A stretch of 32,000 nucleotides of DNA from an uncultured Chloroflexia bacterium (GCA_963718915.1 CAVRAI010000003.1:690001-722000), one strand, 5' to 3'; shown: positions 7,223 through 15,283, counted from the first letter of the stretch. Notes: generated by a model not told the origin, from the sequence alone. Numbers and translations are program-made.

Positions 7223-7292
7223 AAGTATCCAGATGATACTGATTTGGGATAAGGTGTTGTGCTATTACAACGCCGTAGCATGACGCAGGTTT

Positions 7293-7559
7293 ACAAAATA
7301 GGAGGGGCACGCCAGGAGGCAGGCGACTGAAGTCGCGCCTGAAGGGCCTGCCTGCTGCGCCTGCTGCGCACGCTCCGCCACAAAACCCGCCTGCGCGGGT
7401 TGCAGAGACGCACTCCCAACGCGTGTCGCGCGCGTGTCGCGCCGGGCAGCGTCTGGCTCTGGGGAGTCCGCGACGGCGGACTTGGTGGCCGCAGGCCCTT
7501 CAGGCGCGGTTTGAACCGCCCGCGCCCCTCCGCGCATGGCCCTCGTACTTTCTAAAACC
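7293..7559 (-). repeat. GC-rich MITE-like repeat, element A, copy 1 (inverted relative to copy 2)
   Basis: The reverse complement aligns with 13809-14075. Identical blocks include 37 nt (gggcctgcggccaccaagtccgccgtcgcggactccc), 25 nt (gcgcgggcggttcaaaccgcgcctg) and 28 nt (aggcccttcaggcgcgacttcagtcgcc). An internal long-range inverted repeat pairs cgcgcctgaagggcctgc (7334-7351) with gcaggcccttcaggcgcg (7490-7507). Confidence 0.85.
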
Positions 7560-7628
7560 ACATCAGGCTGCGGCGAATGGGGCGGAGCGGCGGGAAATTC
7601 GCCGTAGCGTTCACGCTACGGCCTGCCT
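7553..7628 (+). repeat. hairpin-bearing repeat, element B, copy 1 (abuts element A)
   Basis: It shares a 36-nt identical block (ggaaattcgccgtagcgttcacgctacggcctgcct) plus cggcgaatgggg with 15216-15283. It contains a perfect hairpin gccgtagcg-ttca-cgctacggc (7601-7622). A degenerate related motif lies at about 7661-7687, and a truncated inverted one at about 7262-7290. Confidence 0.8.
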
Positions 7629-7788
7629 CGCCCGCCACGACGTGTGGGGTTCGGACGAAAAAGTGAACGTTCATTACGCTACGGCCAGCATCCTCAAACA
7701 CCAACCCCAGATGTGGATACTGCGAAAAGCGGGGGCGTGATAGTCTGTCATAATGGCTATCATACCCCCGCTCGGTGATTCGGGCTTT

Positions 7789-9108
7789 CTAGTTCGCGGC
7801 AAGCGGGACGGTGAACCAGAAGGTCGAGCCTTCGCCGGGCACGCTCTCGACGCCAACTTTTCCTCCCATCTGTTCGACCAGCTGGCGACAGATGAACAGG
7901 CCGAGGCCAAGTCCCTCGGCGCTAAATTTGCTGGACCCGCTGGCGCGGTAAAAGCGCTCCCACACACGGGGCTGATGCTCCAGGGCGATACCGACACCAT
8001 GATCGCAGACAGCCACCCGCGCCTCGCCGTCGCCGCGCTCCAGCCGCACCTCGACCGGCTGGACATTTGGTGAATACCTCAGCGCATTGGAGAGATAGTT
8101 GCCGACCACCTGCGCGATGCGATCCGCATCGGCCACGACGGGAATGGCCTCCGTGGGTGATTCCAGATGGATGATTCGTCTGCGCCACACCAGCCGCTGG
8201 CCAGCGACCGTATCATGCAGGATCTCGCTGAGGTCGCAGCGCGACGTATGTGTCTCGGCGATGCCGACGCGAATGCGCGTGATATCGGCAAGATCGGAGA
8301 GCAGGCGCTCTGCCATGTTGGTATTGCGGTCGACGAGCGCGAGAGCCGCCGTGGCGCGCGCCACATGCATCGAGGTAGAGTCGGAGGCCATGCGGCTATC
8401 CTCCACCCGCTTCAGCTGGCGCTGCGCGATCTGTGTGCCCAGTTTCATGGTTGTGAGTGGCCCGCGAAGCTCATGGACGATCTGCATGAGCGCCGCTTCG
8501 GTGTTTTCGCTATCCTGGCGCAGTTGTCCCACCGTGTTCGCCCATGCCTCGCGCTCATACATCAGTCGCCCATGATCGAGCGCCAGCGCGACCAGTTGCG
8601 CCAGCGCGCGTGTCCGCAAGAGAACATCCGGCATGACACGCTTACCAAATCGAAACTCGACGATCAACGCGCCCAGCCGTCGCTCGCTGACCAAGAGCGG
8701 CAGCACGAGCCGGACGATTCTGCGTGTGGTGGAGTCGGGAGAGGCAGGATCATGGGTATCACCTTCCTCCCGAACCGCGTGCAGTCCCGTCGAACGAGAG
8801 ATGGATTCGTTGCCTGCCTCGATTTCGGGGATGTCGGCGCATATCTGATCCCACCAGGCGGATGCGCGGCCCGGCGCAACGCCAGCCGTAGCGATCAAGC
8901 GTGGCCGCCTGGCGCGCGCTGACCTCAAAACGATCCCCACCGTCTCGCTATAGAGGGTATAGCGAACCAGATTGGCAAGCCATGTTGCGAGGCCAGTCTC
9001 GTCACGCCAATCGTCGGCGCCAACCAGTGTTGTCTGGCGAGCATCGGTGGGCACGGCAAAACTTACCGTTCCATGTGCCCATCGTCCCTGGTCTCTTCTC
9101 GCATGCAT
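7789..9108 (-). CDS. cytoplasmic sensor histidine kinase (GAF-like N-terminal domain, HisKA, HATPase_c)
   Basis: H-box [12 protein letters not shown]. The ATPase region has [19 protein letters not shown] and [38 protein letters not shown]. No TM helix is visible. Start at ATG 9108 with GGAGG (rc of 9115-9119) 6 nt upstream; the track start is 9129. Confidence 0.9.
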
Positions 9109-9704
9109 ACCACACCTCCCGGGGTTCATTAGTTGAGGGTTCGTTCAGCGCGCACTGTCTGCGGTAAACGCGCGCGGGAGACGCATCACGGCGCTCAATG
9201 AGGATGCGCCCGACGGTTTCTCCTGCTGTGCAGCCAGGGCCTGTCGCTCCAGCGTGTGTAACGTCAACTGAAGGGAGGCTCCTGCCGCACTGCTCACTCT
9301 AAAACGAGAATCCCTGCGCCGCATGCAACAAAGGTTGCAAAAATGAAGTGGCAAGTTTTGTGAGAATACCCCTTATGGTGATGCGGTTTTGTATGATAAA
9401 GTACAGATTGCAGCCTATTCGTCGTAGGAAAACAGCCTGTTTGTATGTGTTAACAGGATCAACATACAACCATCTTAACAACTTGCTTCCTGTATCTGTG
9501 CATCGCGCTCTCAGGCCAGAAGATAGCAAATGGTATACATGGGGAAATGCTCGACAGGCGGGTGTGATCGCACAAGGCGTTGTAGGGGTGTAGGTGTGTA
9601 GGTGTATGCAGGAGGAAGACTGTGTATCAAGCGCCGCGAAGGTGTAGCTGATAGTTGCGGCCTGCGTGCGTTTGACGTTCCCCGATAACAGCGCGATAAC
9701 AGCG

Positions 9705-9749
9705 TGGCATATCTGGCGTATCTGGCATCTTTGGCATCTTTGGCATCTT
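9705..9749. repeat. 9-bp tandem repeat x5 (tggcatatc/tggcgtatc/tggcatctt x3) in the kinase-regulator divergent intergenic region
   Basis: Read directly from the sequence. It is immediately preceded by an 11-bp x2 duplication (cgataacagcg, 9683-9704) and, further upstream, by an 8-bp x3 array (gtaggggt/gtaggtgt, 9582-9605). Confidence 0.9.
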
Positions 9750-13640: not shown

Positions 13641-13808
13641 CCTGGGCGCCGCCCGCTGGCTATCCCGGTTGGCGCGGAATCTCTCGCAGCGTTTCTCGCA
13701 TCGCCAGGCTGAGCCAATGGCAGGCTCCGTACGTCAGGTCACGAGCATGAGTCATACCAATTCCGGCTGGGTTGTTGTATGTGGGGAGCGTGCCGGAAGC
13801 CCAATGTA

Positions 13809-14075
13809 GTTTTAGAAAGCACCAGGGACACGGGCTGGGCAGCGCGGGCGGTTCAAACCGCGCCTGTGGGGCCTGCGGCCACCAAGTCCGCCGTCGCGGA
13901 CTCCCAGACCGTGTCCCAACGCGCTCCCCGTTGGCGAGCGGTTCTGGGCAACCCGCGCAGGCGGGTGTCGTGGCGGAGCAGGTGCAGCAGGCGGAGCAGG
14001 CGCAGCAGGCGAGGCGCAGCAGGCGAGGCCCTTCAGGCGCGACTTCAGTCGCCAGCCGCCGTGGCGGTCCGTCGT
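13809..14075 (+). repeat. GC-rich MITE-like repeat, element A, copy 2
   Basis: See copy 1 (7293-7559) for the alignment. This copy carries its own internal short tandem arrays (gcagcaggcg-type units at about 13975-14030). Confidence 0.85.
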
Positions 14076-14078
14076 AAT

Positions 14079-15210
14079 TAACGTGAGTTCGGGATAACTA
14101 CAGGGTAACATGAACGGGCATCTCCTGCTCTTGGACGAGGGAGGGTTTCTTGGGTTGGCGGCAGTAGGCGACCAATCCGGCGAAGAGATGCACGAGGAAG
14201 TTGAGCGGGCTGCGGTGGCGGGTATGCTCAATCTGGCAGATGTTCTTGAGTTGGTCGTTGATGCTCTCAATGATCGCCCGTTTGCGGAGCAGGAGTTTGT
14301 CGGCCAGGGGCATGAGCACATGGCGCATATTTTTGCGCAGTTTGGTAATGAGGCGCAGGCGCTGAGTGAGCAAGAGCTGCTCAGCGAGCGCTGCTCAGCG
14401 AGCGCTGCTCAGCGAGCGCCGCCGAGATGTAGCCTTTGGTAGCCTTTGTCGGCGAAGAGGCGGCCGAAGAGGCGACCGAAGAGGCGGACCGAAGAGGCGG
14501 CCGAAGAGGCGATGCGTGCCACGCACCAAGCGTGGCACAGGCTGACGGTCATCGACGTTGCCGGGGGAAGACAAAACGCCAGCAGTTCGCCGCGGTCGTT
14601 GACCACCAGATGCAGTTTGAAGCCGAAGAACCAGCCCACCGAGGTCTTGCCCCGCCGGGCATCCACGCGAAAGACCCGATGCTGGTGGATGCGCGCCGGG
14701 TGACAGACCGCGAGGGCCGTCGAGTCAATGAAGCTGACACGAAGCTGACACCGGTGCAGGTTCCACATTGCGTGCGCAGGTAGACGGCGAGCGGAAGGAG
14801 GACTCGCGGCAGCAATTCGATGCAGCAATTCGATGCAGCGATTCGATGCAGCGATTGTAGCTCACGAGGTGCGGAAACTCCCGGCGCAGATGCACCTGCA
14901 CATACTCAGTATAGAACGCTTTGTATAGAACGCTTTGAAGGTGCGGTAGCCCGACTGCTGCAAGAGGATCGCGATGGTCATAATTTCACTGGGATGCAGC
15001 CGGGTCGCGCGTCGACGACGGCGCGTCCCCGAGACGAGCAACTCGCGCTCCCACCACGGCTCAAAGACCTGCCAGAACGCATCCACGGAGCAGTACAAGG
15101 CGTCCAGGTCGAGTATACTCATGACATGCCTCCATTCAGGGACTGACGGGGTGTCGTAAACCGCATCATATCTCTGTTGAAGGCATTTCGCTTATCCCGA
15201 ACTCACGTTA
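14079..15210 (-). mobile_element. IS982-family insertion sequence (about 1.13 kb) with perfect 19-bp terminal inverted repeats and a disrupted transposase
   Basis: IRs are taacgtgagttcgggataa (14079-14097) and its exact reverse complement (15192-15210). The element sits between element A copy 2 and element B copy 2. I see no convincing target-site duplication. Confidence 0.85.
14098..15122 (-). pseudogene. IS982-family transposase pseudogene, split into 3 ORFs
   Basis: Fragments are 14862..15122 (LHPSEIMTIAILLQQSGYRTFKAFY), 14409..14828 (SFIDSTALAVCHPARI...GKTSVGWFFGFKLHLVVNDRGELL...LFADKGY) and 14098..14373 ([52 protein letters not shown]). These match the IS982 transposase motifs as I remember them. 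The frame breaks coincide with the tandem duplications described in the findings. Confidence 0.85.
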
Positions 15211-15215
15211 TTTAG

Positions 15216-15283
15216 TAAAACGACATAAGGCCCCGGCGAATGGGGATGGAAATTCGCCGTAGCGTTCACGCTACGGCCTGCCT
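15216..15283 (+). repeat. hairpin-bearing repeat, element B, copy 2
   Basis: Same orientation as copy 1. Hairpin gccgtagcg-ttca-cgctacggc at 15256-15277. It starts 6 nt after the IS982 right end. Confidence 0.8.

Follow-up and report, generated by a model that had tools for sequence, protein, structure and literature searches.

A 32,000-nt stretch of DNA from an uncultured Chloroflexia bacterium (hereafter the window, to whose whole length all coordinates refer) carries a block of regulatory genes with a GC-rich, structured repeat on each side, the two copies (A1 and A2) being inverted relative to each other. The question raised by this locus is how the two copies came to lie there and, in particular, whether they make the block an invertible or mobile cassette, as was proposed from an inspection of the sequence alone (the sequence-only reading). 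With a probability of roughly 0.8, we explain the locus by two independent insertions of nested, non-coding palindromic repeats typical of soil bacteria of the Ktedonobacterales (Chloroflexota); segmental duplication, composite transposition and an invertible block are all disfavoured. Each of the two inserts (W1 at site 1 and W2 at site 2) consists of an outer element of a second repeat family, B, which encloses an A copy; at site 2, the A copy is in turn interrupted by an insertion sequence (IS) of the IS982 family. Family membership, the order of nesting, the empty orthologous sites, the flanking duplications and the conserved gene orientation are all directly shown by the comparisons described below, in which L-numbers denote the fetched loci.

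The relatives were found by a protein search with the STAND/MalT-type regulator of the block, with matches at 66-83% identity (several of them in genomes named Ktedonobacterales); five genomes were compared for gene order, and the spacer DNA was readable in four of these. The order DUF1269(+), DUF6325(+), SHOCT(+), kinase(-), response regulator(+), MalT-type regulator(+), MASE1-PAS kinase(+) is shared by the window and all five relatives, and the claim that the block carries only regulatory genes agrees with the Pfam assignments (kinase, response regulator and MalT-type regulator). The spacers that hold the inserts differ in length: 89-269 nt in the relatives versus 567 nt in the window between the SHOCT and kinase genes, and 322-458 nt versus 1865 nt between the genes for the MalT-type regulator and the MASE1 kinase. 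No A or B element is present in either spacer of the four relatives with readable DNA, nor does the covariance model R1 (see below) find there any of the modules of which A is composed. At site 2, the relatives L037-L040 show the empty site catgagTCAggagag with a single TCA, which identifies the two TCA copies of the window as a 3-bp duplication, and in-silico excision of 13755-15318 restores the sequence of the relative (catgagTCAggag). At site 1, the alignment gives 11 nt in the relatives where the window has 477 nt (7233-7709); the direct repeats that flank this insert match at 13/16 positions, are single-copy in the relatives at the empty site (atgtagaaactg), and can be read either as a long duplication (13-16 nt) or as a 3-bp one (TGA/TGC). 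Taking the repeat boundaries, insert 1 spans 7242-7706 (465 nt) and insert 2 spans 13755-15315, both inserted units being larger than originally described.

The order of nesting is IS982 inside A inside a B-family element (Table 1). At both sites of the window, the first hairpin of the outer element has A in its loop, in opposite orientations. The junctions read cgccgtagca-A1-ggctgcggcg at site 1 and gtgccggaagcc-A2-ggccccggc at site 2, where the remainder aligns end to end with locus L053, and a third A-in-B nest (L052) has the same junction as W1 and W2. The opposite orientation of A within the outer element points to separate entries into one loop, or to a flip in place, rather than to a copied composite; moreover, the B copies form direct repeats and the A copies inverted ones, which is incompatible with B as a fixed end of A. 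The sequence-only reading had described a B'-A-B architecture in which B was the terminal inverted repeat of A, and this is not supported: B is a separate family that exists without A and whose first-hairpin loop received A, and the supposed truncated B' next to A1 (..catgctacggcg..) is the 5' half of the split first-hairpin stem together with a degenerate left arm, and not an inverted B hairpin.

Table 1. Features of the two inserts and of the genes between them, in window coordinates (U, three-hairpin module of A).
Feature	Position	Strand	Remarks
Insert 1, flanking direct repeat, left copy	7229-7241		CCAGATG-ATACTG
Insert 1, outer element, degenerate left arm	7242-7280	+	ends in 5' half of first stem, CGCCGTAGCA (7271-7280)
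A1, inner element	7281-7565	+	AT-rich terminal inverted repeats TGACGCAGGTTTACAAAATAGGAGGG / CCCTCGTACTTTCTAAAACCACATCA around head-to-head U doublet
A1, internal parts			U(-) 7302-7412; variable central hairpin ~7413-7453; U(+) 7454-7540
Insert 1, outer element, right arm	7566-7706	+	3' half of first stem, GGCTGCGGCG; homologous to L042-L056, e.g. L046
Insert 1, right arm, perfect hairpin	7601-7622		GCCGTAGCG-TTCA-CGCTACGGC
Insert 1, right arm, rest			type-1 segment (..GGGGTTCGG..GTGAACGTTCAT); extra half-site 7675-7686; terminal ..AAACACCAACC
Insert 1, flanking direct repeat, right copy	7707-7722		CCAGATGTGGATACTG
Genes between the inserts	7789-13640		assigned by Pfam
Histidine kinase	7789-9129	-
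LuxR-type response regulator	9952-10605	+
MalT/STAND-type LuxR regulator	~11295-13640	+
Insert 2, target-site duplication, left	13752-13754		TCA; window reads catgag-TCA-element-TCA-ggagga
Insert 2, outer element (type 2), left arm	13755-13801	+	TACCAATTCCGGCTGGGTTGTTGT...; ends in 5' stem half, GTGCCGGAAGCC
A2, inner element	13802-14080	-	inverted relative to A1; plus detached end 15215-15228
A2, internal parts			U(-) 13827-13913; U(+) 13939-14073; ends in IS target hexamer TAATTA (14075-14080)
Defective IS982-family IS	14081-15208	-	inverted repeats ACGTGAGTTCGGGATAA / TTATCCCGAACTCACGT
A2, terminal-repeat remnant	15215-15228	-	14 nt, GTAAAACGACATAA; severed from A2 by the IS
Insert 2, outer element, right arm	15229-15315	+	3' stem half, GGCCCCGGCG; hairpin 15256-15277; terminal ..ACAACAGTCCAACCGGATGGAGTA
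Insert 2, target-site duplication, right	15316-15318		TCA

The B core is a 36-nt sequence (GGAAATTCGCCGTAGCGTTCACGCTACGGCCTGCCT) that is identical at 7593-7628 and 15248-15283, with no chance match in 100 shuffles, and it holds, as claimed, a perfect hairpin with a 9-bp stem and a 4-nt loop. B is absent from the loci of metagenome-assembled genomes (MAGs) that were fetched with the A core (see below). A metagenome scan with the B hairpin yielded 15 soil contigs in addition to the two window copies, and in these contigs the B hairpin is the second hairpin of a conserved palindromic element of ~150-215 nt with inverted ends of its own; most of the 15 contigs are without A (e.g. L053 and L042-L051). 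The B family is small, non-coding, multi-copy and dispersed, and its members fall into a type 1 (left end TGATGAACGTTCA..CCCCGAACAG.., right end ..GGTGTTCGG..GTGAAAGTTCATCA) and a type 2 (left end TTCCAAATCCGGCTACGTTGTTGT.., right end ..ACAACAATCCAAACGAAATTGGTA). The first hairpin, 5' of B, reads ccgcagcc-TGAA-ggctgcgg in L046 and gtcgtggcc-TTCA-ggccacggc in L053, the latter being an uninterrupted type-2 element with TGA on either side and terminal inverted repeats (TIRs) matching at ~24/32 positions. In the window, the outer element of W2 has TIRs formed by 13755-13778 and the reverse complement of 15292-15315; its left arm is ~80% identical to the uninterrupted element of L053, and its right arm aligns end to end with both L053 and L052. 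The left arm of W1, which is absent in the relatives, can be aligned to those of W2 and L053 (..GGTGTTGT.., ..GCCG.AGC).

The family behind A was surveyed by scanning its exact 25-nt core (GTCCGCNNNNGCGGACTTGGTGGCC) across one genome per species. The core occurs at 36 loci: 11 Ktedonobacterales-type MAGs account for 34 of them, a single MAG having as many as 10, and two are chance matches inside genes of other phyla; viral contigs gave no copy of the core, and DNA-level synteny with the window was found for none of the fetched loci. From these loci it is clear that A is a head-to-head doublet of a module of ~87 nt with three hairpins, which we call U. The module begins with the leader TCTGGGGA, followed by hairpin 1 (GTCCGC-GCAG-GCGGAC), the linker TTGGTGG, hairpin 2 (GGCC-loop-GGCC) and hairpin 3, an extended bulged stem (GGC-GCGGT-TTTA-ACCGC-CA-GCC). 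The covariance model of the module (R1), built from an anchored alignment and run on 292 kb of loci, found ~78 strong modules, which form ~30 pairs and ~13 singlets; in every pair, the left module is on the minus strand and the right one on the plus strand, so that the two stand head to head with a variable central hairpin between them. The description of A as a dispersed, multi-copy structured repeat is therefore borne out by the number of loci and modules, and A is absent from the orthologous spacers of the relatives.

The hairpins of U are maintained by compensatory change. In the anchored alignment, hairpin 3 has pairs that occur as G-C 21 / A-U 12 and as G-C 24 / C-G 8, and two-sided changes are found in 3 pairs (23 cells). 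The model-fitted alignment leans toward R1, and its pairing and covariation figures are accordingly upper bounds: two-sided changes in 16/18 base pairs (a score reached by 0/500 shuffles) and 96% of cells paired, versus 33-47% in controls with slid partners. Over all loci, the paired positions of this alignment contain 34 G.T/T.G wobbles versus 9 A.C/C.A mismatches, an excess which hints that the U hairpins are selected on the sense strand of the module, as single-stranded DNA or RNA. A long stem between the two arms of the doublet was also considered as the selected feature and was rejected, being perfect in L002 and L019 and broken in L001, L007, L030, A2 and many others; since it is so often broken, the unit that is maintained is the inverted pair of locally folded modules and not one long hairpin.

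The U elements are intergenic and, with few exceptions, follow the 3' end of a gene; most lie between genes in convergent or tandem arrangement, and a single one between divergent genes. Their promoter- or terminator-like signals show no excess over shuffles. The identity between modules is 0.85 within genomes and 0.77 between genomes, and with 0.86 for the window pair, A1 and A2 are ordinary members of a genome-specific population. Furthermore, a second U element lies within 8 kb at 8/36 A-core loci, so that two elements 6 kb apart are not unusual. A subset of the doublets (A1, A2, L026, L027, L030 and L052) is enclosed in a shell of AT-rich inverted ends (TGATGCAGTTTTACAAAT.A..AGGGACA), and in L018 the A-type AT-rich TIR encloses a different core. 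For the bare doublets (without AT-rich ends), flanking direct repeats are not beyond chance (mean 9.0 in cis, including one 41-nt outlier, versus 7.6 in trans).

Between the two window copies themselves, the repeat search recovers three collinear inverted-repeat arms, 7462-7569/13798-13905 (108 nt, 87%), 7350-7415/13936-14001 (66 nt, 83%) and 7296-7349/14026-14079 (54 nt, 80%), and the pairwise alignment confirms the three identical blocks of the sequence-only reading, with lengths of 37 nt (GGGAGTCCGCGACGGCGGACTTGGTGGCCGCAGGCCC), 28 nt and 25 nt. The R1 scores of the modules are 56.2 and 86.8 bits in A1 and 81.9 and 43.2 bits in A2. The internal long-range inverted repeat noticed earlier is present in A1 (7319-7351/7491-7523, 33 nt, 82%), which as a single strand folds with -106 kcal/mol (z = -4.5 versus shuffled sequence); it does not hold for A2 to the same degree, whose fold is weaker (z = -2.0), the long stem being interrupted at two positions. 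Overall, A1 and A2 are 74% identical, while A1 is 72-73% identical to copies in other MAGs over 210-289 nt; A1 being as close to these copies as to A2, a recent local duplication is excluded. Part of the divergence between A1 and A2 consists of tandem microduplications (7350-7369, 7420-7442 and 13972-14039), those of A2 having units of 9 and 14 nt. A protein-coding role for A was rejected: open reading frames (ORFs) of ~100 aa span both copies, but the peptide segments that they share lie in different frames in A2. At gathering score, Rfam 15 gave no match in the whole window, and at a permissive E of up to 5 it gave only chance-level matches in 7200-7760; the tRNA/tmRNA search returned nothing matching A. 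Elsewhere in the window, R1 has a weak match at 23990-24072 (-) around the gaccgcccacgcggtc hairpin (19 bits, E ~0.007), which is probably due to chance or a very decayed singlet.

The innermost layer belongs to the IS982 family according to its transposase, its inverted repeats and its target duplication. The inverted ends, 14075-14097/15192-15214, extend over 17-23 nt (96% complementary over 23 nt), and the IS is flanked by the 6-bp AT-rich duplication TAATTA/TATTTA, the second copy at 15209-15214. The sequence-only reading was right in nesting the IS in the second copy; its position is not exactly between A and B, since the IS lies inside the AT-rich end of A and 14 nt of A are found beyond it, a remnant that matches the A ends GTAAAACCACATCA (A1) and GTAAAAGAGCATAA (L052). 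The transposase gene is broken by seven tandem microduplications (10-14 nt) and one C-run frameshift; collapsing the seven duplications and adding one C to the C5 run gives a full IS982 transposase, which matches NF033520 with 243 bits (cut-off 130) over positions 3-240 of 243 and PF13612 with 230 bits.

Tandem microduplications are not confined to the IS. The window contains 21 perfect tandem duplications with units of 9-20 nt (versus 0-2 in shuffles), seven of them within the 1.1-kb IS (14376-14937) and others at 6228, 7350, 7420, 9683, 9723, 13198, 13998, 17650, 20608, 22522, 27520, 27596 and 28349; outside non-coding and pseudogene DNA, every unit length is a multiple of 3. The loci from Ktedonobacterales MAGs show an excess of 0.16 per kb, and the two loci of other phyla have none. 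In L041 (2610-2650), the contig of the closest relative compared (83% identical regulator) ends in four copies of gtgataagtcg, and the assembly breaks there. In principle, such microduplications could be fill-in scars of staggered breaks or excision footprints.

The sequence of events that accounts for the locus has three layers. In the first, a MITE-like element (miniature inverted-repeat transposable element) of the B family inserted into the 3' spacers downstream of the SHOCT and MalT-type regulator genes, with a 3-bp T-N-A duplication at site 2. In the second, A (~285 nt) entered the loop of the first hairpin of this element, in opposite orientation at the two sites; and in the third, at site 2 only, an IS982 landed in the AT-rich hexamer of the end of A and then decayed. 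The elements would be selfish DNA moved in trans. For the outer element, the probable agent is a DDE transposase that makes 3-bp TNA duplications, as IS5-family (IS1031/ISL2-group) and Harbinger-type enzymes do. The U doublet may have used its AT-rich inverted ends to move by that route as well, or may have depended on a single-strand mechanism that recognises hairpins (RAYT/IS200-like), like the REPINs, the hairpin-forming doublets discussed below. On this explanation, the presence of two copies around regulatory genes is a by-product of local clustering in permissive 3' spacers, and the copies form no functional unit with these genes.

Several points weigh against this explanation. The lengths of the duplications are inconsistent, with 3 bp for W2 and L053, 13-16 bp (or a mismatched 3 bp) for W1, and 3 or possibly 8 bp for L052. 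In the right arm of insert 1, segments of two B-family subtypes form a mosaic, and the history of this arm includes recombination or further nesting. The bare doublets are without flanking repeats, and different layers may thus move by different mechanisms. The comparison is with distant relatives (66-71% protein identity, with one contig at 83% that has too little flank), and presence and absence are compared between genera or species and not between strains; for the source genome, copies were counted within the 32 kb of the window. Finally, the mobilising transposase was not found. In ~480 kb of loci there is neither an autonomous IS with matching ends of the GCTGGCGGYTGATG type nor a HUH/Y1 gene, although these are weak tests. 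A tblastn search for RAYT/Y1 with an approximate IS608 TnpA query gave no match with E < 0.9, a six-frame scan of all loci for the HUH...Y motif gave 0 matches (a single-copy gene could lie outside the sample), and among the recurrent families, to which the listing is restricted, the Pfam scan of 148 flanking ORFs shows no transposase.

The alternative from which this work started, namely that one B'-A-B MITE is present twice in inverted orientation and serves as a substrate for homologous inversion or for composite mobilisation of the 6.2-kb block, draws on the inverted arrangement with its 37-nt identical stretch (long enough in principle for rare RecA-dependent exchange, given minimal homology lengths) and on the B-like half-sites on both sides of A1. 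We regard it as improbable, and for past events as largely refuted, since B exists as an element of its own without A and is direct where A is inverted, the orientation of the block is the same in all five relatives as in the window, Pfam shows no recombinase gene in the block, and each insert has its own flanking duplication while the genes are resident in relatives without the elements. A past inversion that split one B-A-B element, an idea prompted by the identical B copies, was rejected on similar grounds: B is equally conserved in unrelated contigs, and the block has the orientation found in all relatives. Hypothetically, the 37-nt inverted and 36-nt direct identities could still support rare homologous inversion or deletion. 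Only two A copies, 6 kb apart, are found within the 32 kb, and this could suggest instead a local inverted segmental duplication of one spacer element, with no mobile family at all. Such an origin is hardly credible: copies of the family are spread across many genomes and contigs, A1 and A2 resemble copies from other genomes no less than they resemble each other, and the two inserts differ in their flanking duplications and in the orientation of A inside the outer element. The sequence-only reading had itself proposed that two sole copies with syntenic flanks would point to a duplication; the relatives do show syntenic flanks, but the element has proved to be anything but unique, and the two observations together speak for independent insertions and not for a local duplication.

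A different possibility is that the U module or doublet is a structure selected by the host (a 3'-UTR stabiliser or insulator, a protein-binding site or a small RNA), its mobility being secondary or absent. The strong compensatory variation in all three hairpins fits this view, as do the wobble excess with its hint of one folding strand, the nearly constant placement at gene 3' ends, and the conservation of the module (77-85% identical, at least as conserved as the neighbouring protein with 66-71%). Nevertheless, we consider it unlikely. Apart from the missing Rfam matches and the absence of promoter- or terminator-like signals above chance, the invariably symmetrical, head-to-head arrangement means that the two strands have identical content, and a palindrome at the DNA level accounts for this better than an RNA gene does; the relatives manage without U in their orthologous spacers; and the copies decay through microduplications, with the long stem of A2 broken. 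REP (repetitive extragenic palindromic), BIME (bacterial interspersed mosaic element) and REPIN elements share the features listed in favour of a host function and yet are mobile (PMC3116915). A host function (3'-UTR structure or binding site) is not needed to explain the data, and independent insertion of mobile repeats is the explanation that we retain.

Within known systems, U comes closest to REPINs, REP doublets that form hairpins and are associated with RAYT transposases (Bertels & Rainey 2011; PMC3116915; PMC3337134). Like these, U is extragenic and multi-copy and occurs as two inverted, conserved palindromic modules separated by a variable spacer, with more doublets than singlets, compensatory changes that keep the hairpins, genome-specific populations, decayed singlets and no target duplication at bare doublets. 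It differs in unit size (~87 nt with three hairpins, versus 20-40 nt with one palindrome), in that no RAYT gene was found near any sampled U copy, in the additional AT-rich terminal inverted repeats on a subset of doublets, and in its phylum (Chloroflexota). The outer B-family element resembles instead the MITEs derived from DDE-type IS (e.g. Correia/NEMIS, or IS5-family-derived ones with TNA duplications), being small and non-coding, with TIRs, a 3-bp T-N-A duplication that matches the empty site, and copies on many contigs; unlike these, it is without a parent IS of the same ends in the loci, the flanking repeat of W1 is 13-16 nt, and its internal hairpins serve as landing sites for a second element. 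With the BIMEs of enterobacteria, the repeats share a mosaic of palindromic units in alternating orientation, at gene 3' ends and between convergent genes, but the sequences are unrelated and the mosaic arises here at least partly from nesting in hairpin loops.

Insertion into palindromes is a known habit of some IS: IS1397 and ISKpn1 insert into REP loops, and IS110/IS621-type elements also target palindromic repeats. A is similar in lying in the hairpin loop of another element, where W1, W2 and L052 have it at one and the same position and both orientations occur; it is itself non-autonomous, however, and its target specificity is inferred from three nests. The shared junction of these nests and the palindromic flanks around every shell-bearing copy lead us to a tentative and rather doubtful idea, according to which A would be a site-specific 'parasite of a parasite' that homes in either orientation to one hairpin loop of a MITE family, in a lineage whose dominant neutral mutation would be the 9-16-nt tandem microduplication. 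Such microduplications have killed the nested IS982, and if they were break scars or excision footprints, the three observations would be facets of one unusual biology of DNA breaks and transposition in Ktedonobacterales. The IS of site 2 has the full-length (repaired) transposase match, the TIRs and the 6-bp AT-rich duplication of the IS982 family, but this copy is dead. The locus does not behave as a composite transposon, since the cargo genes reside at the same place in five relatives and each element has its own flanking repeat, nor as an invertible segment or phase switch, since a single orientation is found in the window and the five relatives and the inverted repeats are ordinary copies of their family.

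The spacers and the fetched loci hold other palindromic repeats. Between the convergent SHOCT and kinase genes, outside insert 1, a native palindrome (GGGGGCGTGATAGTC..GGCTATCATACCCCC, 7729-7771) is conserved by the empty site in L037-L039 and L059 and is probably the shared terminator of the two genes; as insert 1 lies just upstream of it, the SHOCT transcript crosses ~470 nt of structured repeat first. A third type of hairpin repeat, cccctc(c)c-tcGTAGg-gagggg with a GTAG-containing loop, occurs at L057:1541-1810 and L018:7440-7690; it fills the SHOCT/kinase spacer of L057 and forms the core of the L018 element with A-type AT-rich ends. A different repeat having entered the same spacer in L057, these 3' spacers are general landing sites. 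At L032:6355-7500, another repeat (catcccaaacgggagtcatcagccatttagac) is interleaved with three U doublets and is responsible for the 41-nt direct repeat that surrounds one of these. Two long ORFs, one of which resembles a phage portal-type protein, contain in-frame GC-rich palindromic repeats (ccccggc..gccgggg ctacaagc; L033:2930-3000 and L032:5150-5400), and L033 contains a 36-nt tandem duplication of this repeat; the 'GATS' peptides of these ORFs were considered as translated U hairpins, an idea that was rejected, the DNA there being an unrelated palindromic repeat.

Full-text literature searches on REP and MITE/IS elements found no description of repeats of this sort in Ktedonobacteria, nor any published REPIN or REP from Chloroflexota. 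Ktedonobacterales harbour at least two apparently undescribed families, a REPIN-like three-hairpin doublet and a two-hairpin MITE-like element. The order is little studied, with large, IS-rich genomes, and the locus offers for it a clear three-level nest with empty-site proof of insertion. It also removes the idea of the two-component/STAND regulatory block as an invertible or mobile cassette. The covariance model and the consensus ends can be used for masking and annotating these repeats, can help to explain contig breaks in MAGs, and can guide the hunt for the enzyme that moves them; a separate lead, on a mutational mechanism, comes from the excess of short tandem duplications across the lineage.

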